This document shows positions 2,218 to 34,660 of a stretch of DNA of 64,000 nt, piece by piece. Origin of the DNA: a phage; the sequence record PZ379075.1. One strand, given 5' to 3'. Position 1 is the stretch's first letter, and every line of letters begins with the position of its first letter. Both the position numbers and the translations under genes were made by a program. The notes below the pieces were generated by a model. That model searched no databases. It was not told the DNA's origin and saw only the letters and a list, made by a program, of their open reading frames with translations.

Positions 2218-2583
2218 ATGGGTGTTATCAAGTTTGTAGTGAAAGTATTTGTAGGCTTCTTTCTGGTTGTTCTCCTGTTAGGTGTCCTGCTGTCATCTAT
2301 GGGTAGCGTTAAGGCTGCAACATTCTCCCCTGATACGGTTGACGGTTTACAGTGTACCTATCTCGTAGAGAATTACGAAACTGGTAAACAGTCACCTAAA
2401 GTTATTATTTTGCATGTAAATGATTTTGATCATGTGCAATCAGATAACAAAGCTATTCTGCTGGTAAATGAAACTACCGGTAAACAAATCACGATAGATC
2501 ACTTGATGCGCTCATCGTTGACGCTCTTTGATGAGTCCATGAATGAAATTGAGTCCGGTAATGGTCAATGTGTAAATCCATAG
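2218..2583 (+). CDS. hypothetical membrane-anchored/secreted protein (121 aa)
   Basis: N-terminal hydrophobic stretch VGFFLVVLLLGVLLSSMGSVKA resembling signal anchor; ATG at 2218. Confidence 0.5.
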   Translation: MGVIKFVVKVFVGFFLVVLLLGVLLSSMGSVKAATFSPDTVDGLQCTYLVENYETGKQSPKVIILHVNDFDHVQSDNKAILLVNETTGKQITIDHLMRSSLTLFDESMNEIESGNGQCVNP

Positions 2584-2969
2584 GCTTAATCTTTCTCCTG
2601 TATTGTGCCGTAGTCATGCCTATGGTCATAATCTATCTGATGCTTTAAATCCTTCCTATAAGCCTCGCTATGAGGCTTTTTTCTTTTCTAAGGTGATTGT
2701 ATACCTTACTCCCTTTTAGCTCATTGTGATGCGTTATAGGCCGCTTGTTATCGCTTTACAAGCCTTTTCCTATGATGTATCACGTTCGCCCGCTCTTTTA
2801 CCTTCCTATAGTGAAAAAGTTTAAAATATTTTGTTTTACCCTATTGCATCCCTCACTGATTAATGTATACTTCATTTCATCGGGTACGATGTAAAACATA
2901 CAAGGCAAGGAAACTTGCCCCGCTCTTTAAAAATCAGGCTAGAAAGTGAAAATATTCTTAAAAAGAGTA

Positions 2970-2998
2970 TTGACACCGAAAACAGCCTGATATATAGT
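2970..2998 (+). promoter_or_regulatory. strong sigma70-like promoter (TTGACA - 17 nt - TATAGT)
   Basis: TTGACA at 2970-2975, spacer CCGAAAACAGCCTGATA, TATAGT at 2993-2998. Confidence 0.6.
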
Positions 2999-3602
2999 GA
3001 GCATAGTCAGCGATGACTTAAAAAATCCCGCTCTTTAAAAATATGATTTGTCTTACGGGTGGCGGCGACGTCATTACTATAAGGCGCTCAGTTAATCGGT
3101 AGAATTGATTCCTGATTCATACGTGACGCAGGCGGACAATAAGCAATATCAATAAGCCTTATTTGTTCGATACTTTCAAAAGATTAATGCTTGAAAGCGC
3201 ACTAGATTCCCTGAAAGACAAATCAGACTTATCATCTTGCCCTTTCGCATAGATTCACGCGAGATAAGGGAAAGGAATTAAAAGAAGATGATAAAAAGAG
3301 TTGCAAACGTGGTTAAAGTAGTCCATACTAACCACAAGTTAGCAAAACATCGCTAACTAGTTCCCAAATCAACGTATCGCGGGAAAGGTGGCACATAGTG
3401 CAGCGATTAGTTCAGGTGTAGGCGGCCTGTTAATGAATCAGTAAGCCTTCAATGTGACAGTGATTAGCAGACACTTTAAAAGGCTAAACGCTCTTTAACA
3501 ATATGAGTCATAAGTTAAGCCTCACCGCTTAATCTTCAATCAAATAAAGCTGATTGATATATCCTCCCAATAGCGGGAACGACGAAAAAGATTAAAAAGC
3601 GG

Positions 3603-3631
3603 TTGACAGCGAAAACAACATGATTCATAAT
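3603..3631 (+). promoter_or_regulatory. strong sigma70-like promoter (TTGACA - 17 nt - CATAAT), paralogue of promoter at 2970
   Basis: TTGACA at 3603-3608, spacer GCGAAAACAACATGATT nearly identical to promoter at 2970, -10 CATAAT at 3626-3631. Confidence 0.6.
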
Positions 3632-4552
3632 GAGCACTCACTAAGCAAATCATCGCTTCAGTGAAAAGCGTAACAACGGCTAACAGTTGCATAGTGTGAG
3701 AAAGCACACTGATAGATTTACCGCTCTTTAATAATTTAAACATTCTCCTATATCGGTTGAATATGCTTGATGATAATAACCATCGGAAAGCATACCAGAT
3801 AAAACGGCGTAAAACTCCCTAAATTATCAGGGTAAACAGTTTTACATTCCCTTACTGGAAACGTCACCATTGATAAACGGATTCATTGAGTACACGCAAA
3901 GACTTAAGCTAATCGCCCACGGTTAAGGGTAGCGGCGGTCATCGCTAACATGGTGCTACGGTGAAAGAAGTTAATCAGGGTAGGCAATCCCGACGAATTA
4001 ACGCTCAATTGAGAGCGGCGGTGAATGGTTAAAAAGTGGCAAATTGCTATTTAACAATAAGGTTTAGTGTGAACGTTTACGATGTGAACGGCTTGAGATT
4101 CATCTTATGATGAAAGTACATAGTCGGTTTATGTAGTAAACTTGCCGAAAGATATAAAACGTCGGAACATTAGACGGTCAATGACTCTTTCGCAATAGTA
4201 TCCCGTAGTGGGCGATGACTAGCGATTGAGAGTTGATATAAAAGGATAGGCGAGAGCGAAAGCAAAGTAAACGATATTGCCGACGGTTACAATAACGTAA
4301 CTAATTAGAGTCGGACGCACTGCCTTATTGTGATGATTGATCATCGCTATCAGGTCGGCTTCGTTTATAGCGACTAATTAAAGATACCAGATGAAACATC
4401 ACGGATAAGGGGGCGGCAAGGTTAACTCCTGATAAGACCGCCCCGCTTACCTATAACTACTTACAATGAGTGGTTATAGTTAAGTCAATAGTGACTTGAA
4501 TTGCTCATAGAGAGCGGGGCAATAGCGCCCTTACAATTGAAAGGTGAATATT

Positions 4553-5452
4553 ATGGCTAAAATCTTTACTCTGGTTAACGAATCTGGTTTTAATGCTCTG
4601 GCTAACAATATCCGTAGCAATAATGCAGCGATCAAACAAGATGTTTCTAACTTCCTGTTAGGTCATTTGCAGCACTTTCGTAGCAACGGTAAGAAGTTAG
4701 ATGTATTGCAGGCGGCGGTTGACTTCCTGTTAACCGAACGTTTCCGCGATATGGATGTTATTGCCACCGCGATCACTTTCTTAACTCCTATCAAGTTTAA
4801 CACTGATGCGTCAAATGGTCGTAAGAAGTGGATTAATCTGGAAGGTGAAGCGAAAGCTAAAGAAGATGCGAAAGAAGCGCAAATTAAAGCCAAAATGGAG
4901 CAAAACCGTGCCCGCTGGTCAAACGCTTTCGAAAACTTTGCATTAGGTCGTGCAATTGAAGTGGATAATCCTAACTTCTACAAAGGTTGCAATGACAACG
5001 TGGCGGCACACCTGCAAATTCCGGCGAAAAACAAGGAAGATTTTAATCAGGATATTTACGCTTTGGTTGAACGCTTGAATGCAATCCGTATTGAAGCCAA
5101 ATTACTGGCTGATGAGCGCAACGGCGCAACCAGCGATAACACTATCGCCCTGAGTGAAGAAGTTGGGAAGGTTAAAAAGTCCTTTGATTCACTCATCAAG
5201 AAAATCACGGCCTCGACGGTAGCGATCTCGGATGATTATCTGATGAACGCATCAAGCAAGGAATTAGAATCACTCGATTCATACGCTGATGAAATGGAAA
5301 AGACTGTTGCAGCTATGCAGGAGAAGTTAGAAAGTCTGCGCGGTCGTATCTCTTCAACGGTTGCTACCCGTACCGAACAAGCGGCGAAAGCAGAAGAGGA
5401 AGAAGTATTGCGTAAAGCGGCTGAAATTATGGCGGCACGTCAGGCGGCATAA
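4553..5452 (+). CDS. hypothetical protein with C-terminal coiled-coil character (about 300 aa)
   Basis: ORF 4544-5452; ATG at 4553 preceded by AAAGGTG; charged heptad-like C-terminus. Confidence 0.6.
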   Translation: MAKIFTLVNESGFNALANNIRSNNAAIKQDVSNFLLGHLQHFRSNGKKLDVLQAAVDFLLTERFRDMDVIATAITFLTPIKFNTDASNGRKKWINLEGEAKAKEDAKEAQIKAKMEQNRARWSNAFENFALGRAIEVDNPNFYKGCNDNVAAHLQIPAKNKEDFNQDIYALVERLNAIRIEAKLLADERNGATSDNTIALSEEVGKVKKSFDSLIKKITASTVAISDDYLMNASSKELESLDSYADEMEKTVAAMQEKLESLRGRISSTVATRTEQAAKAEEEEVLRKAAEIMAARQAA

Positions 5453-5476
5453 GTAAGACAATTTGAATAAACATAA

Positions 5477-5509
5477 GGCGCTATCTTAACGGGTAGCGCC
5501 TTTTCTTTT
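5477..5509 (+). terminator. rho-independent terminator
   Basis: GGCGCTA...TAGCGCC stem followed by TTTTCTTTT. Confidence 0.6.
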
Positions 5510-5554
5510 ATCAGTGCATTGATTCAGTGCATTAATCAAAGAATTTAATCAAAG

Positions 5555-5782
5555 GTGATGATCATGTTAATTACGCATACCACGATTTATAGGAATCTTG
5601 TCAACGGTCAACATTACCGCCTATCTAAAAAGTATGGCGTTGAATGTAAATGTGTTATTACCGGTGAATGGTATCCGTCACCAATGAAGATTGAAACGCT
5701 GGAACGTGAAGCGATCAGTTATATTATCACGCAAGAAACAACGTTAGGCCGTATCTTAAGAAAGCTGGGATTGAGAAAATGA
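5555..5782 (+). CDS. hypothetical small protein (75 aa)
   Basis: ORF from track; weak evidence; two overlapping ORFs follow at 5779-6010 whose real frame is unclear. Confidence 0.35.
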   Translation: MMIMLITHTTIYRNLVNGQHYRLSKKYGVECKCVITGEWYPSPMKIETLEREAISYIITQETTLGRILRKLGLRK

Positions 5783-5999
5783 TATTCAGTAGTAATTTTG
5801 GCAAGTGTCCTATTTGTGAGAAACATCGCAGCACGGGAAACCATCGCAAATGTAGTAAGATATTACAGCGCCAACGTGATAACAAACATTGGGATACTGT
5901 ACACACTAACCAGCGTAAAGAAGAAGTTAGGAAAATGGCTGTTAAAGCGTCATTTGCTCAATCAACCCGTATTGAACACATTCAAAGGTATCAAGCATC

Positions 6000-6209
6000 A
6001 TGATCACTAACATTTCAGAGTTTAAGAAAGCTCCCTCTCGTCTGTTAGGCCGTCGTGTAGTGTATCTTTATAGCAATAAAGGTAAATGTACAACCGGACG
6101 AATTACAACGGTGAGTAGTGCCAATAAGAAACTACTAAAATTATGTGTAACTATGGATGACGGTACAATCCTTCTACGTAGTTGGAAATCGTTTAGTTTA
6201 CTTGATTAA
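6000..6209 (+). CDS. hypothetical small protein (69 aa)
   Basis: ORF from track. Confidence 0.35.
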   Translation: MITNISEFKKAPSRLLGRRVVYLYSNKGKCTTGRITTVSSANKKLLKLCVTMDDGTILLRSWKSFSLLD

Positions 6210-6278
6210 GTTATTTGTTCAAGCCTATCGACTTGATGGGCTTGCCCGATATAACTTATCACTGGAAGGAATAAGATT

Positions 6279-6722
6279 GTGGCTAAATCTAAAATCAGCA
6301 TGAAGGGCGGGCGTTGTTTTGCTATCTCTGAACTAGAGAAAGAGAAACCGAAGGCAACTAATCACGTTAGTAAGCGTAGTTTAAAACGCCGTGCTGCAAA
6401 GGCTGAGGCTGAATCCCATGTTCCTTCCAGTGTGGCAAAACGTGTAGGCCATCGTGTCCATCGTGCTGATGCGTTGTTGTTAGCTGATCATAAACGTTCT
6501 TTGTTACAGAGCGGGGGCGCTAAAACAGAAGAAGAGAAGAAGTTAGAAATCTTCTGTAATGGTCGCACCCGTGGTAAACAGAAGTTTAAGGGTAGCACGA
6601 AAGACCCTCAGGCATTCCCTAAGACAAGCCAGTGTGCACCTGATGTTTTCTACGCAGATAGTAAACACAAGTGGGGCGTTGAGAAATACATTGACCCCAT
6701 CAAAGAGGCAAGGGTTAAGTAG
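6279..6722 (+). CDS. hypothetical highly basic protein (147 aa), possibly nucleic-acid binding
   Basis: Lys/Arg-rich ORF; non-ATG (GTG) start in track, real start uncertain. Confidence 0.45.
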   Translation: MAKSKISMKGGRCFAISELEKEKPKATNHVSKRSLKRRAAKAEAESHVPSSVAKRVGHRVHRADALLLADHKRSLLQSGGAKTEEEKKLEIFCNGRTRGKQKFKGSTKDPQAFPKTSQCAPDVFYADSKHKWGVEKYIDPIKEARVK

Positions 6723-6802
6723 TAGGAATATAGCCCCCTCTTTTAGTACTATGACGCTCTTTCTGTAGCGTCGTGCCCTCTCCCCATTTGAAGCTTCCGC
6801 AT

Positions 6803-6856
6803 AGCCGCCTTTGGGCGGCTTTTTGCGTTACCGCCTCCTTAATTGGAGGCTTTTTT
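6803..6856 (+). terminator. two tandem rho-independent terminators
   Basis: GCCGCC-TTTG-GGCGGC + TTTTT, then GCCTCC-TTAATT-GGAGGC + TTTTTT. Confidence 0.65.
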
Positions 6857-6882
6857 GTATCTATTATATAGGAAACCATGAA

Positions 6883-7695
6883 ATGAAAGCATTTGCATTG
6901 TCAGCTATTCTAGTTTTATCTGCCATTAGTGCCCCATCCTTTGCTCATTCTGACAAATGCTCACACTCTAAACAGTGTGAAGTCCAGCAGGGGCCGAAAG
7001 GTGATAAAGGAGAACAGGGTATTCAAGGCGAACAAGGTCCGAAAGGTGACAAGGGTGATCGCGGAGAGCAGGGCTTAAAAGGTGATACTGGATCGGCTGG
7101 CATCAATGGTAAAGATGGCATCAATGGTAAAGATGGCATTGATGGTAAAGATGGCATTGATGGTAAAGATGGCATCAATGGTAAAGATGGCATCAATGGT
7201 AAAGATGGCATTGATGGTAAAGATGGCATTGATGGTAAAGATGGCGCTCAAGGTGAAAAAGGTGATTCTGGTGCAGATGGTAAGAAAGGCGAAACTGGCC
7301 TAACTGGTGCAGCAGGTTTGAATGGCGTTGACGGATTAAATGGCAAAAATGGTAAAGATGCAGATATGTCTGCCGTTAATGCTAACGCCAAATCTATCAA
7401 AGCTCTGGAACAATCCACCAACAAACGTTTTGCTTCTTTGCAAAAACAAGTAGACCGTAACCGTGATCATGCCTCTGCTGGTATTTCTGGCGTGGCTGCA
7501 ATGGCTAACATCCCGCAAGTAAGTCAAGGATCTGCTTTCTCTGTTGGTGCTGGGGTAGGTGCTTACGATGGTGAATCTGCTCTTGCTATTGGTGTTAGTG
7601 CTCGTTTCAATGAAAACGTAGTAACTAAAGCATCAGTGGCAATGACTTCAGAGAGTGACGCTGTTCTGGGCGCTGGTGTAAGTTACGAGTGGTAA
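6883..7695 (+). CDS. secreted collagen-like repeat protein with YadA-like (trimeric autotransporter) C-terminal membrane anchor
   Basis: Signal peptide MKAFALSAILVLSAISAPSFA; about 50 Gly-X-Y triplets; C-terminal segment ending GAGVSYEW matches YadA-anchor beta-barrel signature. Confidence 0.65.
   Translation: MKAFALSAILVLSAISAPSFAHSDKCSHSKQCEVQQGPKGDKGEQGIQGEQGPKGDKGDRGEQGLKGDTGSAGINGKDGINGKDGIDGKDGIDGKDGINGKDGINGKDGIDGKDGIDGKDGAQGEKGDSGADGKKGETGLTGAAGLNGVDGLNGKNGKDADMSAVNANAKSIKALEQSTNKRFASLQKQVDRNRDHASAGISGVAAMANIPQVSQGSAFSVGAGVGAYDGESALAIGVSARFNENVVTKASVAMTSESDAVLGAGVSYEW
7100..7243 (+). repeat. Tandem 18-bp repeat GGCAT(C/T)(A/G)ATGGTAAAGAT x8 (encodes GI(N/D)GKD collagen units)
   Basis: Direct reading; causes spurious antisense ORFs 7023-7229 and 7082-7303. 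Confidence 0.85.
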
Positions 7696-7702
7696 GATAG
7701 TG

Positions 7703-7729
7703 CCTCTCCCGAAAGGGAGGGGTGTTTCT
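7703..7729 (+). terminator. rho-independent terminator
   Basis: CCTCTCCC-GAAA-GGGAGGGG hairpin plus T-rich tail. Confidence 0.6.
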
Positions 7730-7805
7730 ATAAGCATCTTTTCGAGGGTGTTTATTGAAACAACAAAACAGGAGGTAGCAAGTTCTGATAACAACGGCAC
7801 AGCTA

Positions 7806-8195
7806 ATGTTGACATTGACTATTTATTATGAGGCAGGGAATCAGCCAACCGCATGTAAGGCTTTAGTTGCGGATACCGTGATAAATAGAATGGCCCAACG
7901 AAAACTGACCGCTGAACAGGTGATAAGACAAAAGAACCAGTTTGAGTGGATTCCGGTACTATTAAAACAGGAGAAACCTTATAAACGTTATGTAAAGCTG
8001 ATTCGTGATAAAAATCCGATGACTAAGCAAGCCATTGGAGAAAGCGAGCGACTTGCTAAACGTGCCCTTAAGAAGAATTATGTTCCGCTGTACAGTGGGA
8101 CTTACTTTCAGAGTAAGAGCGAAGGGGTGCCAAAATGGTATGCCAATCCTATGTATTGTGGTGATTTAGTGTTCGATAATAGCTCTAGGGAATAA
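7806..8195 (+). CDS. SleB/CwlJ-like cell-wall hydrolase domain protein
   Basis: Motif IYYEAGNQ...ALVADTVINR resembles the EARGE...VxNR signature of the SleB-type hydrolase family; frame is open from 7779. Confidence 0.45.
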   Translation: MLTLTIYYEAGNQPTACKALVADTVINRMAQRKLTAEQVIRQKNQFEWIPVLLKQEKPYKRYVKLIRDKNPMTKQAIGESERLAKRALKKNYVPLYSGTYFQSKSEGVPKWYANPMYCGDLVFDNSSRE

Positions 8196-8395
8196 TCACT
8201 AGTGCCAGATTTGACAAACTAAATTCCTTTATAAACCAACCACTTAGTAAATTTATTGAAAAAGATGGCAGTATTCTGGGACTATGGGTAATGCTCTGTA
8301 TATAGACCCTTTGAAAATTTCTTAGAAAATAAGTTTACTAAATATAACTTACTTAAATAATATTACTTTTAATCTCTGATAAAAGGGTAAATAAT

Positions 8396-8692
8396 ATGAC
8401 TTTAGAAGTATATAAATTCCTTTTTGTAAGCTGTTTAACTATCAGCGTTCTAGGATTTATTATTCTCAGAAACAAAGCAGCAAGCTGGGAGAGAATGTAT
8501 AAATCCCTAGTTCGAGTGGATGAGATGTATAATGAGAAAGTTAAAGTAACACTTAACGATCTTATTATGCAAGTAGAGGACAGAAACAAGCGTCTTCAGA
8601 ACCTCAACCACGAAGTGTTACGCCTTGCTCGTGCTAATGAAGACTTGCGAGTGGCTATTGCTAAACAGCAGGAGATTAACAATGAAGCATGA
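8396..8692 (+). CDS. hypothetical protein with N-terminal TM helix and coiled coil (98 aa)
   Basis: Hydrophobic N-terminus FLFVSCLTISVLGFIIL followed by charged helical region. Confidence 0.5.
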   Translation: MTLEVYKFLFVSCLTISVLGFIILRNKAASWERMYKSLVRVDEMYNEKVKVTLNDLIMQVEDRNKRLQNLNHEVLRLARANEDLRVAIAKQQEINNEA

Positions 8693-8939
8693 TATTAATA
8701 CAGCCCCTGTAGTCAAGCAACTGAAAGACCTGAAGGTGGGGAGTGTTTTTGAAACTGTTCCACCTAAAAATAAAATATATCTTACAGTAAAGCTAGATTC
8801 CTCAACCGTTTATTCAGCTAGTTGGAAGCCTGACGAAAGAGTAGTAGTAGATCTCACTTCGGATAGAATAACAATGTTGAGAAAAGATACTGTTGTTCAG
8901 GTAGTTGATAATGCTCGACTTACCAATAAGGTGGATTAA
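8682..8939 (+). CDS. small paralogous-family protein (member 1, GxVF motif family)
   Basis: About 85 aa; shares N-terminal MK...L..GxVF and mid-protein pattern with 10+ neighbours; start ATG 8682 overlaps upstream stop. Confidence 0.55.
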   Translation: MKHDINTAPVVKQLKDLKVGSVFETVPPKNKIYLTVKLDSSTVYSASWKPDERVVVDLTSDRITMLRKDTVVQVVDNARLTNKVD

Positions 8940-8941
8940 AG

Positions 8942-9178
8942 ATGAAAGTTAATATTAAATCCGATCGTACAATGCTTCGCTTAAATAACATGAAGCCGGG
9001 CGTTCTATTTGAGCGTAAAGACTCTCTTTATATTAGAACCGACACACTATACGCAGATAACTATGTGAACTGTGTTGATGTGGTAACTGGAAAGCTCATG
9101 CCTTTTAAACGGGATGAAGTCTGCCAAGTACGTAGTGATCTTCACATAACCAACATAGAGGCTAAAGATGAAGATTGA
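8942..9178 (+). CDS. small paralogous-family protein (member 2)
   Basis: Motif PGVLFERK; tandem, coupled starts. Confidence 0.55.
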   Translation: MKVNIKSDRTMLRLNNMKPGVLFERKDSLYIRTDTLYADNYVNCVDVVTGKLMPFKRDEVCQVRSDLHITNIEAKDED

Positions 9179-9419
9179 TCTTGAGATGAAAGCTAAAGAA
9201 TTGTGTGTGGGTGATTTGAAACTTGGTGATGTATTCCAAGTTAAGGCAACATGTATTGATTATTACATGATCGTTCAGTTATATACACCACATGTGTCAG
9301 AGACTGATCTTCGGAATGGTTGTGTAGTGCTCAGTTTAAGCACCAATCAAGTAATGAAGCTAGATTCAAACTTACCTGTTTCAGTTATCCATGATGCAGT
9401 AATTACCAATCGGAAGTGA
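9168..9419 (+). CDS. small paralogous-family protein (member 3)
   Basis: Motif LGDVFQVK. Confidence 0.55.
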   Translation: MKIDLEMKAKELCVGDLKLGDVFQVKATCIDYYMIVQLYTPHVSETDLRNGCVVLSLSTNQVMKLDSNLPVSVIHDAVITNRK

Positions 9420-9634
9420 ATATGAACATTGAAAAGAAGGTTGTTGACGAGGCTGTTCAGTTACGATCTCTTGAAACACATGATGTATTTGTGTGGGGAG
9501 GCAGTCTGTTTCAGAAATCTGCTTATGCTGTAGAGGGCGGGGTTCGTTGTTTTAATATCTTCAACAATGAGATGCAAATCCTTCCTAACTTCGCTCATGT
9601 TAATAAACTTATCCACCTTTCTATATATCAATAA
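9416..9634 (+). CDS. small paralogous-family protein (member 4)
   Basis: Motif THDVFVWGG; ATGA start/stop overlap. Confidence 0.5.
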   Translation: MNMNIEKKVVDEAVQLRSLETHDVFVWGGSLFQKSAYAVEGGVRCFNIFNNEMQILPNFAHVNKLIHLSIYQ

Positions 9635-9644
9635 GGGCAATTAG

Positions 9645-9863
9645 ATGGAAATTAAAGTAGTTGATTATCCTAAATATGCAAATGCAGAGGACGTTAAAGG
9701 TGGTGATGTTTTCTCTTATGATAAACGTTTCTGGCTGATGCTAGAAGATAAAACCCCTGATGGTTTGTGTAAGGCTGCTAACTTGAGCAGTGGTTCTGTT
9801 GAAGTCTTCGGTCTATCAACCACTGTTATGCCACGACCTGATCTGTGTTTATCCCAAAAGTAA
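9645..9863 (+). CDS. small paralogous-family protein (member 5)
   Basis: Motif GGDVFSYD. Confidence 0.55.
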   Translation: MEIKVVDYPKYANAEDVKGGDVFSYDKRFWLMLEDKTPDGLCKAANLSSGSVEVFGLSTTVMPRPDLCLSQK

Positions 9864-9871
9864 CACCGACT

Positions 9872-9976
9872 TATAGCCCTTGTGTTTATCAGAGGGCTAT
9901 GTGAGGGTGTTCCTCATTAACTTATTAATTCAGGCATATGCCACACCGCTAGGGAGAGCTTGCTCGAACATCCGGT
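9872..9976 (+). other. Conserved about 105-bp structured noncoding element, copy 1 (second copy 15307-15417)
   Basis: Shared blocks TATAGCC..hairpin..GGGCTATGTGAG ... GCTAGGGAGAG ... CTCGAACATCCG in both copies. Confidence 0.5.
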
Positions 9977-10374
9977 GTTAGACTAAAACCTGTTAATTTT
10001 CGAAAGACTTTCCGATATGTAGGGGTACGTATTGGTTTGGGATTCAGGAGACTTCCTAGGGGTAGGAAGTCTTCACCAGTTGGAATAAGAGATAGCTCTA
10101 GAACCTGAACTCTTAGGCAGAGAAGGTCGGCAATGAGTACGCGGTCAGAATTAGCCTCCTGACTAGGGCTATCCCTTATATCAACTGGCAATAATGCCTC
10201 CACTAACAAAGAGAGATAGGTATGAAAGTATCAACCAAACGTATGAACCGCCCTGAACGTATGGATGCAGTAGCTAATGGTGCTCTGAAACTGGAAGGCT
10301 TTTGGATTCATGCAATGTCAGCCATCCGTAACAAGCAAGGTAATTGGACGTATAACAGTTAACAAATAAAGAGA

Positions 10375-10404
10375 GGCTGCCTTCGGGCGGCCTTTGTTGT
10401 TTTA
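10375..10404 (+). terminator. rho-independent terminator
   Basis: GGCTGCC-TTCG-GGCGGCC hairpin plus TTTGTTGTTTT. Confidence 0.65.
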
Positions 10405-10447
10405 ATTAAGGGACAACTCTTACTTAAACTAACAAGAGGAAGCTAAA

Positions 10448-10624
10448 ATGTCTAAGCAAACAATCAAACATACGCAATCTGGTTACTCTTATGTCAACTC
10501 TCCTTGCTGCGGTGCTCGTATTAATCTGGTTAAGGAAGAGGTTCGTATCGTTCAGCGTGGCGCTACTGTTGTTCGTTCATGCTGTGTCTGTGGTAATGAT
10601 ATTTTTATCAAAGGTAAAGTATGA
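10448..10624 (+). CDS. small Cys4 zinc-ribbon protein (58 aa, below track cutoff)
   Basis: Translated by hand: MSKQTIKHTQSGYSYVNSPCCGARINLVKEEVRIVQRGATVVRSCCVCGNDIFIKGKV; stop overlaps next ATG. Confidence 0.4.
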   Translation: MSKQTIKHTQSGYSYVNSPCCGARINLVKEEVRIVQRGATVVRSCCVCGNDIFIKGKV

Positions 10625-10845
10625 TTATCGTTCGCTCTGAGCCTAAAGATAACACTTTTGGTAGCCTCCGTAATGGTGATGTGTTCTCTCTAGAGATAGA
10701 TGGGGATACAAAACCTCCTTTATATATGAAGGTTATGCACAGACATGCTATCTGTATAAATAATCCTGAAACAAGATTTACGTTTGACAGAAGTTGTCCT
10801 GTCAAATTTTATCAAGCTACCCTAAACGTTAGGAGAGTAGGATGA
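10621..10845 (+). CDS. small paralogous-family protein (member 6)
   Basis: Motif NGDVFSLE. Confidence 0.5.
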   Translation: MIIVRSEPKDNTFGSLRNGDVFSLEIDGDTKPPLYMKVMHRHAICINNPETRFTFDRSCPVKFYQATLNVRRVG

Positions 10846-11093
10846 AAAACTTCCAAGCTGCACCAATAACTAAAGTGATTGCAGTTAATGATGTGATGAT
10901 GGCTGTTCCTCTGAACACTCGTTATATTGCAATTGACAAGATGGGATATGTATGGGCTTGGAAGATCAAGCCTAGTTATAACGCACTGTTTGATGAGTTT
11001 GTTTGTACTGGTACTTACAGTCCTACATTCTTGGGTTTGTTTAGTGAGTTTGATGGTCAGTATAAAATCATCACACTCCCTGCTTGTGCTTGA
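10842..11093 (+). CDS. hypothetical small protein (83 aa)
   Basis: ORF coupled to preceding gene; family membership unclear. Confidence 0.4.
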   Translation: MKNFQAAPITKVIAVNDVMMAVPLNTRYIAIDKMGYVWAWKIKPSYNALFDEFVCTGTYSPTFLGLFSEFDGQYKIITLPACA

Positions 11094-11273
11094 GGTTATT
11101 ATGTTCAAGTGGTTTAAACGTTTCTTCCATCTCCATGATTGGGAGACAATAAAAGAAGTTCGTTTACACATATATAATGAGATTGGTCAAATAGAAGACA
11201 CAGGTACTCGTTATATACTTCGATGTAAAACATGTGGTCATATCACCAAGCGAGATATGATCTAAATAATTCT

Positions 11274-11349
11274 GCGCTCTTAGCTCAATGGATAGAGCAG
11301 TAGCCTTCTAAGCTATTGGTTACAGGTTCGAGTCCTGTAGGGCGCACCA
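11274..11349 (+). tRNA. tRNA-Arg (anticodon TCT)
   Basis: Hand-folded cloverleaf: acceptor GCGCTCT/AGGGCGC, D-stem GCTC/GAGC, anticodon loop CTTCTAA with TCT at 11307-11309, T-arm ACAGG-TTCGAGT-CCTGT, discriminator A, encoded CCA. Confidence 0.85.
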
Positions 11350-11489
11350 CATTTAGGGCTAGTATGGGTGCGGCACCAGAGTTAGTGTATCCCTGTTGAG
11401 GCAAGTGCTTTTATAACAGTGGGAATTACTTTCTTAGTGAGCTTCTGGTTCGATTCCAGATAGTCCACCAAATCTAATAGGAGGTAATT

Positions 11490-11789
11490 ATGAGTTGGGG
11501 TGGTGTAATATCCTTAATCTGTATCTTCCTTGTCTGCATAGCCCTTACAGGCTGCGTACAGAGCCGTCCTGATGGATGGTGTGCAGTAGCAGTGGAAGGT
11601 GTTTGTGTTTCTCGCTGGTATAAGGGTGAGAAGATTCCTTCTGGTGAAATTGATATGCGATGGAACGGAGCAACCTGTTCTAATGCTAACCCTTCTATCA
11701 ACGAAGAGAAGTCTACGCCAGACAATGTTGTGATTGATACAGCGTTGTGGTGTGGTGGCTCTGTAACAACAACCGGTAAGGAGTGGTGA
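11490..11789 (+). CDS. putative Cys-rich lipoprotein (99 aa)
   Basis: Signal peptide with lipobox LTGC (ICIFLVCIALTGCVQ); overlapping minus ORF 11474-11827 considered spurious. Confidence 0.5.
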   Translation: MSWGGVISLICIFLVCIALTGCVQSRPDGWCAVAVEGVCVSRWYKGEKIPSGEIDMRWNGATCSNANPSINEEKSTPDNVVIDTALWCGGSVTTTGKEW

Positions 11790-11790
11790 T

Positions 11791-11988
11791 ATGAATTACA
11801 CATCCACAAAGGTGTTAATTGATTCAATTAATAGCTCCTCAGAAGCTGTACAGGAGCGTTTAATACAAGATGTTAGCAATGACATTAAGTTCTTTGTTAA
11901 GAGCCGCCTGTTAGGTTCTAAGGCTTATTACAGAGCTAAAGCAGAGCTTACAAAGAGGGTGTTTCTTTTACATGGTTTGGTATATTAA
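11791..11988 (+). CDS. hypothetical small protein (65 aa)
   Basis: ORF from track. Confidence 0.35.
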   Translation: MNYTSTKVLIDSINSSSEAVQERLIQDVSNDIKFFVKSRLLGSKAYYRAKAELTKRVFLLHGLVY

Positions 11989-11997
11989 GGAACTTAT

Positions 11998-12219
11998 ATG
12001 AAACTAGACTCTAAGCAGTCACTTAAAACCGTTGAGCTGTCCACGCTGCCAAACGGAAGTATTTTTGGTCATGATAAACACTTCTGGATTAAAACAGACA
12101 TCATAGACGATGGATATATCACCTGTGTCAATCTTTGGAACGGTTCAGTGGATGGTTATCGCCCTAGCGCAAAGGTAGTCCCTCAGCCTGATGCTAAGGC
12201 TGTAGGTTTAGTTTACTAA
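11998..12219 (+). CDS. small paralogous-family protein (member 7)
   Basis: Motif NGSIFGHD. Confidence 0.5.
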   Translation: MKLDSKQSLKTVELSTLPNGSIFGHDKHFWIKTDIIDDGYITCVNLWNGSVDGYRPSAKVVPQPDAKAVGLVY

Positions 12220-12370
12220 GGAGTTCATATGAGCTGTTATGGTGGCGGTGAAGTGTGTGATGACGACGACATGGAATCCAATGGTACATGCCCTGACTGT
12301 GGGTGTGAGACATTTGATGGAGTGTCAGTATACCCTGCCTGTAGTTACTCACCAGTGATCTGTAAAACAT

Positions 12371-12628
12371 GTGGAGATCAACCTTGTGACCAGTCTTGTT
12401 AGTATGTTAATAGCCTATCTGATAGGATCAGTAGTATCAGGTGTTCTGATTAAGATTATAGATGTTAAAGGTAATCAGTGTTTCAGAGGTTGGGATGGTG
12501 AGCCAGACCTCGGAAAGATAGCAGCTATGGTTTTCTTGTGGCCTATTATTGCTGTACTATTTATAGCACTCGTATCATGGGCTGCTCTTTGGGATTTCAT
12601 CCTTCCTAACAAAAAGTATGAGGACTAA
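12371..12628 (+). CDS. small membrane protein with two predicted TM helices
   Basis: Hydrophobic segments LVSMLIAYLIGSVVSGVLI and AAMVFLWPIIAVLFIALVSWAAL; real start may be internal. Confidence 0.45.
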   Translation: MEINLVTSLVSMLIAYLIGSVVSGVLIKIIDVKGNQCFRGWDGEPDLGKIAAMVFLWPIIAVLFIALVSWAALWDFILPNKKYED

Positions 12629-12629
12629 T

Positions 12630-13293
12630 GACTGAAGAATTTTTAAAGTGGTTTGGTGATACCTTCAAAGAGTATCTATTCTCTCCAGAAGACTTTGAAG
12701 AACTGAAAACCTACACTTGGTTGGCTTGGAGAGATAGCCGACGAGAGATGAATAAGTAATATCGTGAAGGATTCTTACGAGAGTCCTTTGAGATAGGACT
12801 TCAGATCTCCTATCAAACTAACATTCATGTAACTAGCCCATAAGGGCGTTACCCTTTAATAACCCAGCCCACTAAGGGGGCGGGAGTTTAGTGCTGGATT
12901 AGCATAACGCTTATTCCTACAAAGGCAACCGATTGTTAGGTCTTACATGCAATATTAATTAATAGGATAAGGGAGGATTCGTCCCCTCCCCCTATTCATA
13001 AACTATTAGGAGAGTACATTAGCTGATTAGCTGTGGAAGGTAGGCCGATATCTACAGCGTGGCCCAGAGCTAGTGTACTCCCCAATAACTTTAGGGTAAA
13101 TGTGGAACAACCTTTTAATTACAGGTATAGCTTATGGGACTCAGTAATGCAGAGTCTACGGTAAAGCAGTCGCCCGTGGTCGAATGACCGTATGCCCATT
13201 GGATGCATTCCTTTGGTGATGGCTAGGGAGTCCGAGCGTAGGTTCGAATCCTACACCTGTAACCAAATTGAATAATAGCTAATTGGAGGATGT
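12630..13293 (+). other. ORF-poor structured region with a tRNA-like 3' module (T-arm GTAGG-TTCGAAT-CCTAC, acceptor, CCA ending at 13265)
   Basis: Canonical T-loop and CCA at 13238-13265 but no clean 76-90 nt cloverleaf found; several hairpins (e.g. GGGAGG...CCTCCC at about 12971-12995). Confidence 0.3.
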
Positions 13294-13605
13294 ATGAAAG
13301 CACGAAGAACTATATGGACTCCGATGCAGATTGAAAATCTTCGGAGACTAATCAAAGAGTACTCGGTTCAAGAAGTTGCTCAGATTATGAATGTAACGGA
13401 GAATGCAGTTAACGCAGCTTGTACTAAATTCGGAATATCAAGAGCTTCAATCCGAGTTAAATGGTCTGAAGAAGAAGACCAGTTCCTTATCCGTAATGCT
13501 GGGTTCATGTCTATTCAGAGAATGGCTGACATGCTCGGTAGAAGTTATGCTGCTGTACAGAACAGAGCATGTATGCACCTTAACATTAGCCTCAAACTTA
13601 AATAG
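13294..13605 (+). CDS. putative helix-turn-helix DNA-binding protein (103 aa)
   Basis: Two HTH-like segments (VQEVAQIMNVTENAVNAA and SIQRMADMLGRSYAAVQNRA). Confidence 0.45.
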   Translation: MKARRTIWTPMQIENLRRLIKEYSVQEVAQIMNVTENAVNAACTKFGISRASIRVKWSEEEDQFLIRNAGFMSIQRMADMLGRSYAAVQNRACMHLNISLKLK

Positions 13606-13613
13606 GAATCAAT

Positions 13614-13868
13614 ATGAAAGTTAACGAATTGAACAAAACTATCAAGACTGTGAAACTCCACACTCTGAAGAAGGGCGATACCTTCCGGCTGGAAGAGAAC
13701 GGTCCAATTCATATGGTCTGTACTGCGGCATCTACTAATTGGGTAGAAGTTGCACGAGATCGAGTCGTGTGTGTCAGACTGGAAGATGGACACTTAAGTG
13801 GCCCCGTTGAGGGCATCTCTGTTATTCCTGTTAAGGTTGAAGCTAACGTTATTAAGGATTCTAAATGA
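13614..13868 (+). CDS. small paralogous-family protein (member 8)
   Basis: Motif KGDTFRLE. Confidence 0.55.
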   Translation: MKVNELNKTIKTVKLHTLKKGDTFRLEENGPIHMVCTAASTNWVEVARDRVVCVRLEDGHLSGPVEGISVIPVKVEANVIKDSK

Positions 13869-14116
13869 AGATTACCCACAAGAAAGAAGAAGTGACCACG
13901 ATTGATCTCAACTCCCTCCCCAGCGGAGCAGTGTTTAAATTCCCTGAGAGTGCTACTCTCTATGTTAAAGGGTCTGTGTCTGAAAGTCCTAATGTAACCG
14001 TTAACTCTGATCGAACAATTACTCTTCGTCTATCCGATGGTAACGTAACAGCACCTTCTATCTGGTGCCGAGTTGTTCCTGTATCAGCAGAACTTTTGGT
14101 GGATAATACGCAATGA
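13865..14116 (+). CDS. small paralogous-family protein (member 9)
   Basis: Motif SGAVFKFP; ATGA overlap. Confidence 0.55.
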   Translation: MKITHKKEEVTTIDLNSLPSGAVFKFPESATLYVKGSVSESPNVTVNSDRTITLRLSDGNVTAPSIWCRVVPVSAELLVDNTQ

Positions 14117-14358
14117 AAATCATCCCAAAGAAAAAGGATAATACGGTACGATTGGAAACAATCATTCCCGGAAACCCTTTCGTGGTTCAGAACGGAAGTG
14201 CCTCTCCTCAGTATTACATGAGGGTTGAAAATGCTTCTGGTAACATCCGTATAGCCAGTGGTTGGGTTCCTGTGGTAAACCTTTCCACAGGTGTGTTATC
14301 TGTTAAAGGTCTTGATGATCAGGTAGAAATGATTCGTATGTCAGTGGTTCAGGAGTAG
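14113..14358 (+). CDS. small paralogous-family protein (member 10)
   Basis: Motif GNPFVVQN; ATGA overlap. Confidence 0.55.
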   Translation: MKIIPKKKDNTVRLETIIPGNPFVVQNGSASPQYYMRVENASGNIRIASGWVPVVNLSTGVLSVKGLDDQVEMIRMSVVQE

Positions 14359-14612
14359 TGCATATGAGCATTATTAACATTAAAGTTAAAGACAAAGAGG
14401 AAAAAATCCTCCGCGTCAGAGATCTAAATATGTCAGATGTGTTCACTCTCCAAGAGTGCCAAAATCAAAAGGTTTATATGATGACAGCTAAAAGCAGGGG
14501 TTGTCAACCTGCTGGAGCTGTTAACCTAGGCACTGGAGAACTACGTGTCATCTCTGGTGATATGGTTGTTGGTGAGAAGTTTATTAAGGCTGAAATCATC
14601 TTAACTTCGTAG
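14358..14612 (+). CDS. small paralogous-family protein (member 11)
   Basis: Motif MSDVFTLQ. Confidence 0.5.
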   Translation: MHMSIINIKVKDKEEKILRVRDLNMSDVFTLQECQNQKVYMMTAKSRGCQPAGAVNLGTGELRVISGDMVVGEKFIKAEIILTS

Positions 14613-14736
14613 GGAAAACAAATGAGACGTAAAGCATATTCTTATGACGATATGATTAACCAGAAAGGCTTCGGTCAACGACAGCCTGACGGTTCAATTA
14701 TCTGGTTCGTAAACGGACAGAAAAAGGTAGCTAAAT

Positions 14737-14790
14737 AAGCCCTCTTCTCTCCTCCTTTTAGTACTATGACGCCTCTCTGTGGGCGGCCCG
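14737..14790 (+). repeat. Repeated motif AGCCC..CTC..TTTTAGTACTATGACGC (second copy; first copy 6731-6775)
   Basis: 17-bp core TTTTAGTACTATGACGC identical at 6741-6757 and 14756-14772. Confidence 0.6.
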
Positions 14791-14793
14791 ATT

Positions 14794-14830
14794 TGCGTAG
14801 GGAATTCCCTCTACGCAGCCATAATTTTTT
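14794..14830 (+). terminator. hairpin with T-tract (terminator-like)
   Basis: TGCGTAG-GGAATTCCCT-CTACGCA followed by AATTTTTT. Confidence 0.5.
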
Positions 14831-14844
14831 AAGGAATTTCCCCT

Positions 14845-15078
14845 ATGTCTAAAGTAAGCGCAATCGATGCAATCCGTCAACCGTTTCAGTTCCAATCCAA
14901 ATCAACCCAAACCTTCAGCGAACCTAAGCAAATTCGCTTGGGTGGTACAGAGAAGACTGTGTTTGATCTGGCTAAAAACAAGAGCGTTACCGTAGTTGAT
15001 GGTGGCACTCTGGTTAACGTTTCTCATCGCATCCGCACTGGCAAAACTGCCAAAGATCGTGCTAAGAAAGGTGAGTGA
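14845..15078 (+). CDS. hypothetical protein (77 aa)
   Basis: ORF from track. Confidence 0.45.
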   Translation: MSKVSAIDAIRQPFQFQSKSTQTFSEPKQIRLGGTEKTVFDLAKNKSVTVVDGGTLVNVSHRIRTGKTAKDRAKKGE

Positions 15079-15293
15079 TGATAACACTTGTGTCTGTAGT
15101 TTACAGATTACACTATCGCCTAGATAAAGGAAAATCTTATAAATGCAAGAGTAAGACAGGGAATCTATGCTCTGTAGAGAACAACTCTGGTCAATGGGTG
15201 AATGTTCCTTGTTGCTGGTTCAGGAAAGATTTGACTAGCAAAGAGATTGACGAAATTCTTAGTGATGATTTTGTAAAATCAGGTGATTTTTAG
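15075..15293 (+). CDS. hypothetical protein (72 aa)
   Basis: ORF coupled to previous. Confidence 0.4.
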   Translation: MMITLVSVVYRLHYRLDKGKSYKCKSKTGNLCSVENNSGQWVNVPCCWFRKDLTSKEIDEILSDDFVKSGDF

Positions 15294-15306
15294 TTGTAGT
15301 AACGCC

Positions 15307-15417
15307 TATAGCCTTCTTCGGAGGGCTATGTGAGTTATTCTGACTCAACTAACCTAATCTTAATATATTTCCCGTATGGGGCCGATGCTAGGGAGAGGAA
15401 CATTCCTCGAACATCCG
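15307..15417 (+). other. Conserved structured noncoding element, copy 2
   Basis: Homologous to 9872-9976 (see above). Confidence 0.5.
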
Positions 15418-15683
15418 TCGGATAGATATTTTAAGAGCAGGTTATCCACAGATATTGGGTAATATCTTTTTGTATTTAAAGCTTGACTCTTTTCGGAGAG
15501 TCCTTTTTTAAATTCAACGAGAGGAAATATGTCTAAATTAGATTTAAAACTGCTAGCAGCAGCGGTAGTGATTTGTGCACTAGCACTGGTAACGCAGAGA
15601 ACATCTGGATTTATTCAGTGTTTCTTTTCTGGGCAATCCACTTATCAGTGGGTTATTGACGAGTGTAAACAACAGGAGTAAGT

Positions 15684-16046
15684 ATGAATACACGTCCCAT
15701 CAAGGGCAACGTTAATATTGAAACTCTGAACAAGGTTGCATCAAACCTCGGTGGTATGTCCAACGAAGAGCTTGAGCAAGAACTTGCTTGGATTGCAAAT
15801 GGTATCAAGGTTGCTAAAGGTAAGATTGCTCGTGAGCAAAGTAACATGAAAGCTCATAAGTATCTAATCCATCGTGCAAACGTGTTACCGGATCGGGTTG
15901 TACATCTTGCCCGTAAAAACTACGCAGAAGCAAAGAAAGCTCTGGAAGAAGCTGAGTTCCAGAAGCATCAATTTATGAACAACTATCGAAACTTCCGAGA
16001 TATTCTTTATATTCGTAAGTCGATTGAGTTGATTAAAAACCAATAG
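15684..16046 (+). CDS. hypothetical protein (120 aa), helical/charged
   Basis: ORF from track. Confidence 0.5.
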   Translation: MNTRPIKGNVNIETLNKVASNLGGMSNEELEQELAWIANGIKVAKGKIAREQSNMKAHKYLIHRANVLPDRVVHLARKNYAEAKKALEEAEFQKHQFMNNYRNFRDILYIRKSIELIKNQ

Positions 16047-16057
16047 AGGTTGGTATA

Positions 16058-17257
16058 ATGTTTCCAGTAACATTAGAAGATACTGAAGGTAATATTTTAA
16101 CAGTCAACCCTCCTTGTTATGGGTTCCTTCAGCTTCGCAACTATAACGGTGGCGTTGATGAAGACGATGAAGAGTATGATGACTACTTCGACCCTAACAT
16201 GTATGAGGCAACTCATGGATGGAATATGCACGTTCGAGTGTGGCATGAAGAAGCTAACGTTCGTAGTGCTGATGGGGAAGAGTTCCTGTTAAGCCGAGAG
16301 ATGGATATGTGTAAAATCAAGCATATCTGGAACTCTGGAACTCATATGAAGATGTTAGGTTTTAGACGTTGGCGTGATGAAAAGCATGTAGCTGAAGCTT
16401 TAAGTTGGTGTTCGTATGAAGATGAAGACACGCCCCCTAAGAACAACATCGAACGTTGGAACGACAAAAACCCTGAGCATCGAACCACACCTCGTGCTGT
16501 ACTGGAAGCTATGGAAGCATTTGTGGACAAAGATCGTCCCTCCTGTTTACGCTGGCACGATAAAGGTTTTATGGGGGTAGCAACTGAGAATATCCCTGCT
16601 GATCGTTGTCTGTTCTATTTGATGTTAGACCGAACCTTCTATTGTGAAGATGAAGAGAGTCAAGTTGAAACCTTCCTCCATAAATGGTTGGTTGAAGGCT
16701 GGACAATCCTTCAGGCTTATGTTTACTCACGAATGGTTAGCACTTACACTAACCTCTTGGGAGAAAAGAAAGCAACTCTGGTTGGTAACGATTGGGATGC
16801 TTGTATCTTCCCAGCGTCGCTATTTACAGTCGGCATGGCTGATAAATACGCTGAAGCATTTCAAGTGCCTTGGCGTCAACAGTCATATAGAGATGGATGC
16901 GGTCATTTCCGTGATGAAGACTTTAAGTGGATTCATTACGAGAATGATGAAACAGCAGAATTACGAGTTAACAACTCAATGTTCTTGCCAGTGATGCACC
17001 CCGATCTAGTAAAAGACGGGTCAGAGACACTTAAAGGTGATAATCTTTTGGTTAACTTTACCCGTCGCGTGTCTAAAAATGAGAAAACAGCTAACAGGTT
17101 AATCTACGGCATTCGTGCCGAGGCTAAAGACCTGTTCAACATCTACAACATCATTCAGCGATTTAGTAGTGGAACTCTGGACCAAAGTTCGGAGTATTCA
17201 GTGATTCCGTCCTCTGAGTGGGATGGTATTATGAGCGGATTATTTTTAGGAAAATAA
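16058..17257 (+). CDS. hypothetical acidic protein (399 aa), first gene of putative amidoligase cassette
   Basis: Long ORF; no motif recognised; linked to cassette only by position. Confidence 0.55.
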   Translation: MFPVTLEDTEGNILTVNPPCYGFLQLRNYNGGVDEDDEEYDDYFDPNMYEATHGWNMHVRVWHEEANVRSADGEEFLLSREMDMCKIKHIWNSGTHMKMLGFRRWRDEKHVAEALSWCSYEDEDTPPKNNIERWNDKNPEHRTTPRAVLEAMEAFVDKDRPSCLRWHDKGFMGVATENIPADRCLFYLMLDRTFYCEDEESQVETFLHKWLVEGWTILQAYVYSRMVSTYTNLLGEKKATLVGNDWDACIFPASLFTVGMADKYAEAFQVPWRQQSYRDGCGHFRDEDFKWIHYENDETAELRVNNSMFLPVMHPDLVKDGSETLKGDNLLVNFTRRVSKNEKTANRLIYGIRAEAKDLFNIYNIIQRFSSGTLDQSSEYSVIPSSEWDGIMSGLFLGK

Positions 17258-17267
17258 AAGGTTAGTT

Positions 17268-34604: not shown

Positions 34605-34660
34605 ACAGTAACTTATAATGTATACTCCTTAGTGTACACTGATATATTAAGGAGTTCTAA

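Follow-up and report, generated by a model that had tools for sequence, protein, structure and literature searches.

Background

In the rrn operons of Escherichia coli, as in phage lambda, boxA on the nascent RNA loads NusB and S10 (NusE) and, together with NusA, NusG and SuhB, leads to modification of RNA polymerase. The Nus/boxA background for both systems is also laid out by Baniulyte et al. (PMC5725501), who give GYTCTTTAANA as the functional consensus of the gamma-proteobacterial boxA and place consensus copies outside the rrn operons, upstream of clustered regularly interspaced short palindromic repeat (CRISPR) arrays and in the 5' untranslated region (UTR) of suhB. The locus analyzed here lies in a phage. 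It is a gap of about 2 kb, poor in open reading frames (ORFs), that spans positions 2590 to 4540 of a stretch of 64,000 nucleotides (nt) taken from sequence record PZ379075.1 (hereafter, the window) and ends just ahead of the early gene gp124, the homologue of phi32_124 of phage phiEco32. Our analysis suggests that this gap combines several rrn-like modules of promoter, hairpin and boxA with a conserved, structured RNA leading into gp124.

The closest cellular analogue of this arrangement is the E. coli rrn leader, in which promoters P1 and P2 and the boxB hairpin precede boxA. Both have sigma70 promoters of high strength and, behind a hairpin, a boxA that does not differ in sequence; both also repeat boxA along the unit and continue into a long, highly structured, untranslated RNA. 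As opposed to the rrn operons, the phage units have no detected boxC, their RNA is unrelated to ribosomal RNA (rRNA; no Rfam match), protein-coding genes follow on the same transcript, and Nus binding to their boxA is a prediction. The boxA copies of CRISPR arrays and suhB likewise reside on untranslated or leader RNA, but they are single sites serving host genes, and the suhB boxA promotes termination. Among phages, the closest analogue is the early control region of T7, also a virulent coliphage, in which tandem strong sigma70 promoters near the genome end (A1-A3) are followed by CGCTCTTTAACAA at 812-824, a boxA in the untranslated leader before gene 0.3. The two loci have 15 identical nt, AAAAAGAGTATTGAC, which comprise the A-rich upstream element and the start of the -35 hexamer (2960-2974 in the window, 454-468, at A1, in T7). 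T7, however, has one boxA in a leader of ~175 nt, whereas three to five boxA copies and a covarying leader of ~0.9 kb are found here.

The nutL and nutR sites of lambda are also phage boxA sites downstream of early promoters and placed to extend early transcription through terminators, but their hairpin lies downstream of boxA instead of upstream, and their boxA is of the lambda type (CGCTCTTA) and not of the rrn type (GCTCTTTAA). A nut site of the lambda type was rejected for the present locus: there is no conserved hairpin at boxB spacing downstream of boxA, and a search that was not exhaustive identified no N-like protein, the neighbouring proteins being without known family. Finally, the RNA resembles GOLLD, ROOL, OLE, HEARO and raiA in its length of several hundred nt and its multi-domain fold supported by covariation, and GOLLD and ROOL are often borne by phages as well. 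It differs from them in lacking an Rfam match, in being fixed as the 5' leader of one gene and in its narrow host range, being confined to coliphages of the Gordonclarkvirinae and some related phages. Several boxA modules joined to a covarying RNA of ~0.9 kb are a new variation on these known arrangements.

An rrn-type boxA repeated in the early gap

The region is matched by 98 phage records, all of them phiEco32-like podoviruses (Gordonclarkvirinae: Kuravirus, Suseptimavirus and Nieuwekanaalvirus). Shigella phage ShigP1 is 99.9% identical to it and Escherichia phage SkaterBoy_Bas90 99.3%, and its counterpart in phiEco32 is the 1.94 kb gap between phi32_125 and phi32_124. Early genes lie on the + strand in the orientation of the window. 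The gap is blank in the annotation of most records and holds hypothetical proteins, promoters or terminators in a few.

A preliminary description of this DNA had pointed to a motif present in four copies, and all four are recovered here as CGCTCTTTAA at 2921, 3029, 3489 and 3722, always on the + strand. It had also placed copies at positions +30 to +95 of the transcript, close to what is obtained for those at 3029 and 3722 (Table 1) if transcription is assumed to start ~7 nt after the -10 hexamer. The core GCTCTTTAA occurs five times in the window, as opposed to 0.93+-0.89 expected, and none of 100 shuffles reaches five; the fifth copy (AGCTCTTTAAC, 58275, - strand) falls within a coding gene. 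In the whole genomes of phiEco32, SU7 and TH34, the 13-mer YGCTCTTTAANAA is present exactly four times each, without exception on the early strand and within the gap, and its reversed control pattern is absent. The four window copies and 77 copies from 19 relatives all read YGCTCTTTAANAA and fit GYTCTTTAANA; the AA at positions 11-12, which lies outside the search pattern, is invariant in the 77 copies, and the flanks vary freely. The rrnB leader of E. coli (NC_000913.3) carries cacTGCTCTTTAACAATTTATCAgac downstream of promoter P2 and a hairpin, and a boxA copy of phage Bas86 has GCTCTTTAACAATTTATCA in common with it (19/19 consecutive bases), the same motif being found in SU7.

Judged by these matches, the repeated motif is boxA, the NusB/NusE (S10) loading signal of rrn leaders and lambda nut sites, which the preliminary description had not recognized, and this part of the locus is a new instance of a known signal. 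A reading of the motif as a terminator was rejected in favour of this antitermination and Nus-factor loading signal. Also rejected as a fifth boxA was the look-alike TGCTATTTAACAA at 4045, because position C4 of the consensus is wrong in it; distant relatives keep just its TTTAACAAT.TGG portion, from which the helix closing domain II of the RNA described below is formed. A literature search, with the primary phiEco32 papers (PMC2587145, PMC3275717) outside its reach, returned no text joining "phiEco32" and "boxA", and searches on Kuravirus non-coding RNA, T7 boxA and T5 boxA gave nothing relevant, the svsR paper being unrelated.

Table 1. Coordinates of predicted and conserved features of the early gap and its borders in the window
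Feature	Coordinates	Strand	Details
Intrinsic terminator closing the upstream gp128-gp125 operon	2660-2690	+	Stem 2660-2678 plus T run; 78-88% conserved in relatives
Weak sigma70-like promoter	2844-2871	+	TTGCAT-16-TATACT; overlaps exact gp36 consensus TAATGTATA at 2861-2869
Module 1	2904-2933	+	Hairpin GGCAAG-GAAA-CTTGCC (2904-2919; z = -3.3), then boxA1
boxA1	2921-2933	+	CGCTCTTTAAAAA
Strong sigma70 promoter	2970-2998	+	Predicted; TTGACA-17-TATAGT, 11/12; upstream AAAAAGAGTATTGAC identical to sequence upstream of T7 A1
Module 2	3005-3041	+	Hairpin AGTCA-GCGA-TGACT (3005-3018), then boxA2
boxA2	3029-3041	+	CGCTCTTTAAAAA; ~+25
Variable segment V1	3042-3232	+	Present or absent among relatives (25-45% gaps); z = +0.5 and -0.8
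Conserved element and degenerate promoter	3234-3329	+	Element 3234-3300 (91-97% identity), then TTGCAA-17-CATACT, 8/12 (3301-3329)
Variable segment V2	3330-3478	+	In ~40% of relatives
boxA3	3489-3501	+	CGCTCTTTAACAA; invariantly ~1065 nt ahead of gp124 ATG
Conserved spacer with conserved fold, boxA3 to proximal promoter	3502-3602	+	94% of cells paired
Proximal strong sigma70 promoter	3603-3631	+	Predicted; TTGACA-17-CATAAT, 11/12; ~950 nt before gp124 ATG in 19/19 relatives
Three leader hairpins	3654-3710	+	Last, AGTGTG-AGAAAG-CACACT (3693-3710), at rrn boxB position
boxA4	3722-3734	+	CGCTCTTTAATAA; ~+85
Domain I, multi-branched	3741-4027	+	Closed by CATTCTCC/GGTGAATG; z = -2.55
Hairpin with invariant boxA look-alike	4028-4055	+	TGCTATTTAACAA starts at 4045
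Domain II	4056-4329	+	Closed by invariant helix AATAAGGT/GCCTTATT; z = -5.14
Domain III, long hairpin	4330-4402	+	Deeply conserved GATGATTGATCATCGCT...TTTATAGCG
Five 3' hairpins	4406-4531	+	4406-4449, 4451-4479, 4481-4498, 4503-4515, 4516-4531; none followed by a U run
Shine-Dalgarno and phi32_124 homologue (gp124)	4541-5452	+	AAGGTG (4541-4546); ATG 4553; 299 amino acids
Strong intrinsic terminator after gp124	5475-5512	+	

Promoters and modular organization

The two near-identical sigma70 consensus promoters that had been reported at 2970 and 3603 are both present, with 11 of 12 consensus positions each and 82% identity over 34 nt, CGAAAACA included. Promoter-like sites overall are not above chance (12 vs 18.3+-3.9 in shuffles), and these two owe their significance to how well they match the consensus and to being kept in every one of the 19 relatives, not to site count. 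All boxA copies are untranslated and on the early (+) strand. In the window or in relatives, each follows, at a distance of 25-125 nt, a predicted sigma70 promoter that matches 10-12 of 12 positions and has an A-rich upstream stretch. A small hairpin stands ahead of boxA at 2904-2919, 3005-3018 and 3693-3710, and the last of these covaries (helix 3: 3/6 pairs compensatory). The degenerate promoter at 3301-3329, which serves boxA3, is a consensus TTGACA promoter in SU10, SU7, EK010 and TH34, and the phiEco32 subgroup has TTGACA-16-TAATAT ahead of the first boxA in place of the weak promoter at 2844.

The promoter-hairpin-boxA modules are conserved in the 19 relatives, in eight metagenome contigs and in four distant phages. 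The distal modules number one to three per phage and the boxA copies three to five, but the proximal series of boxA (-1065), promoter (-950), boxA (-832) and gp124 ATG is fixed in all 19 relatives and in seven of the eight metagenome contigs, the eighth of which ends short. Four long Logan contigs encode gp124 homologues of 48-70% identity behind a gene-free gap of 3-3.4 kb; these distant contigs have two or three boxA copies each, most of them behind a consensus-like promoter, and 900-940 nt separate the proximal copy from the ATG. The conserved spacer between boxA3 and the proximal promoter has compensatory changes in 6 of 35 pairs, as opposed to 0-2 in slid controls. No special folding was found in the variable segments V1 and V2.

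Several further observations concern the same stretch. A contig from a wastewater RNA library joins 3040 to 3227, without 186 nt of V1, and matches the presence/absence polymorphism seen in isolate genomes. In Bas92 and the four distant contigs, the block of promoters, boxA and RNA comes directly after divergently transcribed genes, and the LAMP record ends just upstream of it; the annotated gp128-gp125 operon is absent from these relatives with smaller genomes or greater distance (Bas92, LAMP and the four distant contigs). The gene-free gap in Bas92 and the distant relatives measures 2.1-3.4 kb and probably takes in the genome ends. The weak promoter at 2844 coincides with an exact copy of TAATGTATA, the promoter consensus of the phage sigma factor gp36 (PMC8948821), and this match may be incidental, since only 4 of 20 phages retain it. 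Beyond this copy at 2861 (+), exact matches to TAATGTATA in the window lie at 34616 (+), 40913 (-), 40985 (+) and 50816 (-), and the divergent pair 40913/40985 probably marks a boundary of middle and late gene clusters.

A conserved, structured RNA ahead of gp124

The absence of + strand ORFs of 60 amino acids (aa) or more, noted in the preliminary description, holds for ORFs overlapping 2590-4540, the longest of which have 49, 38, 33 and 32 aa. The sole ORF above this size is on the - strand (3540-3743, 67 aa) and intact in only 3 of 20 relatives. The ~0.8-0.9 kb between the last module and the start of gp124 are conserved like a gene, identity from 3484 to the gp124 ATG (4553) being ~90% across 19 relatives with hardly any indels. 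Variable columns fall on the three codon positions in the ratio 174/155/163 (p = 0.57) in 3480-4552, and hence without codon bias, as compared with 83/54/249 (p = 4e-38) in gp124. No 150-nt window of the region has a 3-base periodicity of substitutions, and its ORFs do not hold up in relatives, where they are broken off or differ in length; gp124, by comparison, has an intact frame in 20 of 20. One ATG ORF has a ribosome-binding site, at 3288; it overlaps a promoter module and its length differs between phages. The small peptides that had been envisaged for this region therefore find no backing, there being neither a conserved small ORF with a ribosome-binding site nor codon periodicity, and a reading as protein-coding sequence or small ORFs, failing in these comparisons on codon-position bias and frame retention, is rejected.

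What is conserved in this segment is a fold. RNAalifold, run on 19 sequences, returns 245-281 pairs, and the consensus fold of 281 pairs has 98.1% of its cells paired. Compensatory changes occur in 80 pairs, as opposed to 37.7+-3.6 in shuffles (0/500 reach this number) and to 8-14 when the pairing partners are slid by 1-3 columns, and the covariation score is 0.217 vs 0.04-0.06. G-U cells (504; 9.5%) far outnumber A-C cells (32; 0.6%), and hence the + strand, that of the early transcript, is the folding strand. Folds of single sequences agree with the consensus in domains I and II (z in Table 1). Even when simply aligned with MAFFT, the distant relatives retain 60-81% of the pairs vs 35-48% in slid controls, with 32-66 pairs each changed on both sides relative to the window. 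The sequence islands found family-wide include CCCACG..GGG.AG, GCTCAATTG.GAGC, ATGTAGTAAAC, TCCC.TAGTGGGCGAT, GAGCGAA and GATGATT.ATCATCGCT...TTTATAGCG, and conserved islands among variable peripheral helices are a pattern typical of a functional RNA core.

Motif scans locate the RNA within this phage group only, on five IMG/VR contigs and on the eight metagenome contigs. The region stays below the gathering threshold for all Rfam families, including GOLLD, ROOL, OLE, HEARO, 6S and riboswitches, and a permissive search yielded only matches at chance level, at E up to 5, in 2400-4700. The four distant loci have no Rfam match either. The sole match of the whole window at the gathering threshold is a tRNA-Arg (anticodon TCT, 11274-11349), which is also the only one found by ARAGORN. 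Comparison with 5,426 E. coli genomes by BLAST, a method blind to short complementarities, revealed no similarity. In wastewater RNA-type libraries, represented by contigs only, a contig covering 3029-4391 (X3) has a depth of 47.9 vs 4-18 in its neighbours and one covering 2929-4104 (X1) a depth of 20 vs 4-9; genes cannot be ranked by the depth of contigs, strains that occur together are merged where the sequence is conserved, and these depths are not counted as evidence of expression.

Taken as a whole, the alignments support the presence of a conserved structured non-coding RNA on the + strand of the region. The abundant early non-coding RNA of the preliminary description is upheld as regards its non-coding nature and its strand-specific, covarying fold, its transcription and abundance remaining predictions; the covariance-model search advised there for transcripts was run against Rfam on the sequence and matched no family.

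gp124 and the downstream early region

No terminator was found between the structured RNA and gp124. The gp124 protein belongs to no Pfam family, and its AlphaFold model (predicted local distance difference test, pLDDT, 77.7), is mostly helical and ends in a long C-terminal helix; a Foldseek search of the PDB returned nothing for it at E up to 0.001. The PHROGs of gp124 and all its neighbours are uninformative, being mostly of unknown function and in two cases carrying a generic label (polymerase, terminase). Further good terminators follow that of gp124, at 6803, 6833 and 10372, and terminator-like sites in 4500-24000 number 32 vs 12.9+-4.1 in shuffles. Between 4553 and 23478, by contrast, the + strand has no sigma70 promoter of 11/12, the best being one of 10/12 at 8749. 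Because no near-consensus promoter intervenes before 23478, early transcription would have to pass the terminator at 5475, and the early genes beyond it seem to depend on read-through for their expression.

Two small early proteins upstream of the gap (2218-2583 and 1606-1872; 121 and 88 aa) are named "terminase" and "polymerase" in several records and in PHROGs; these names, which have no Pfam support, look like annotation errors copied between records. Downstream, an early ORF of 294 aa (6811-7695, +) contains a long collagen-like G-X-Y repeat with GKDGI units, and its counterpart in a distant contig matches the Pfam families Collagen and YadA_anchor. A lytic phage thus carries a gene resembling those of adhesins among its early genes.

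Functional interpretation

We consider it likely that the gap is composed of rrn-like, Nus-modified early transcription units that make a large structured leader or non-coding RNA. In each unit, a host sigma70 promoter of high strength would be followed by a short hairpin in the leader and then by a consensus boxA. By analogy with the rrn operons, the nascent boxA would be expected to load NusB/NusE(S10), NusA, NusG and SuhB onto the host RNA polymerase, which in its modified form would resist Rho along the long untranslated RNA and would aid co-transcriptional folding, as proposed for rRNA. The modified polymerase probably also carries early transcription through the intrinsic terminators of the next ~20 kb, be it by Nus factors and boxA alone or with the help of a phage factor. 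The product of the proximal unit would be the conserved multi-domain RNA of ~0.8-0.9 kb (~3638-4552). Unless processed, this RNA is physically the 5' leader of the gp124 mRNA, and it could act in cis as a leader or in trans as an early RNA.

Several points weigh against this interpretation. The binding of Nus factors to these boxA copies, and the starts, ends, processing and abundance of transcripts from the region, are predicted from nucleotide sequence only. The GT-rich boxC of rrn operons was not found downstream of the boxA copies, where a partly conserved A/T-rich stretch lies instead, unlike the TGTGTGGG of rrnB. Without lambda N, the Nus/boxA system is known mainly to counter Rho, and read-through of strong intrinsic terminators is less certain. 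The structured part has an excess of G over C like that of the surrounding coding DNA, with C exceeding G only in 2400-3000, and composition therefore does not point to a particular need to shield it from Rho. In local folds boxA1 and boxA2 are predicted to be unpaired. In the consensus fold boxA4 is partly drawn into the weak A-U helices 4 and 5, which never covary, and may not be fully accessible. Lastly, boxA is absent from the early region of the more distantly related phage 7-11.

A first alternative assigns the RNA a role in cis only. It is possible, if rather doubtful and not the reading we favour, that the RNA is only a cis-acting leader: the point of the region would be a lambda-like processive antitermination of the ~20 kb early operon, as the downstream terminators without strong promoters would suggest, and the 0.9 kb fold would do no more than govern how stable the gp124 mRNA is or how it is translated, with no function of its own. 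The RNA is indeed always found directly upstream of gp124, in 19 relatives, seven metagenome contigs and four distant phages and with no intervening terminator, and in helix 4 of the consensus fold the sequence flanking boxA is paired to the Shine-Dalgarno region. This helix, however, shows no covariation and is broken in TH34 and TH42, and a core that measures ~800 nt, forms ~280 base pairs and keeps unpaired motifs under deep conservation goes far beyond the needs of known leaders. A function of the RNA in its own right can be put forward only tentatively: the large structured RNA (~3740-4530) would then be a new class involved in host takeover, constituting the first product of the phage, active without translation and dependent for its correct folding on boxA and Nus factors, which would serve as a co-transcriptional chaperone as they do on rRNA. 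If so, it might bind a conserved host protein or RNA.

The preliminary description had also raised the idea of a decoy. In concrete terms, the region would be a sponge for Nus factors or a promoter sink, its very strong promoters and its abundant transcripts with three to five boxA copies titrating NusB/S10/SuhB and RNA polymerase away from host rrn operons as one element of host shut-off. Each genome does carry several consensus boxA copies behind consensus promoters, and rrn-type boxA binds NusB:NusE with high affinity (8 nM; PMC2800207). We nonetheless regard this role as improbable, for it leaves the conserved 0.8 kb fold and its fixed spacing to gp124 unexplained, and the boxA copies, varying from three to five, give no hint that a high number is selected for. 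Alternatively, phage DNA replication might be primed or activated by transcripts that start at the tandem promoters: strong promoters in tandem within a long non-coding stretch recall the primary origin of T7, a structured pre-primer RNA recalls RNA II of ColE1, and no origin is annotated in the phiEco32-like records examined. Such a function is likewise improbable, since the site has neither iterons nor an AT-rich unwinding element differing from the genome average, GC skew does not shift and composition does not hint at an origin, no role of boxA in origins is known, and the promoters are of the early, host sigma70 type. Small proteins missed by ORF callers, finally, can be dismissed almost entirely: short ORFs with weak ribosome-binding sites do exist (ATG 3288, 22 aa; GTG 3961, 23 aa; GTG 4036, 24 aa) and some records annotate hypothetical proteins here, but the lack of periodicity, the broken or resized frames and the overlap of ATG 3288 with a promoter module speak against them.

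boxA in other phages

Clusters resembling the one described here were seen elsewhere. Four consensus boxA copies within ~1 kb occur in Proteus phage PM135 (96324-99824), in a similar contig of ~104 kb and in Vibrio phage Vc1 (25068-28568). In the T5-like Proteus phages they are near the pre-early A1/A2 genes, and the stretch of the T7-like Vc1 also holds an S-adenosylmethionine (SAM) hydrolase gene. Moreover, in >109 IMG/VR contigs a boxA lies 20-50 nt behind a consensus promoter. Virulent phages may thus generally have boxA in their early regions.

Conclusions

phiEco32 is a model for the control of host transcription by a phage, and the records and literature examined here state no function for the largest of its non-coding regions, ~100 phage records leaving it blank or filling it with spurious "hypothetical proteins". 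The recognition of boxA provides a testable mechanism for the way in which host polymerase might cross 0.9 kb of untranslated RNA and an early region studded with terminators, and the same question on early transcription has been raised for the related phage 7-11 (PMC8948821). Few structured RNAs of this size have been described in bacteria and phages, and this one resides in easily handled E. coli phages, among them Bas86, Bas87 and Bas90-92 of the BASEL collection, where it is open to deletion, probing and imaging and offers a natural test of Nus factors as RNA-folding chaperones outside rRNA. If the RNA does constitute a new class, clusters of boxA at the leading end of the genome would be a general and overlooked feature of virulent phages that start out on host RNA polymerase, be they T7-like, T5-like or phiEco32-like.

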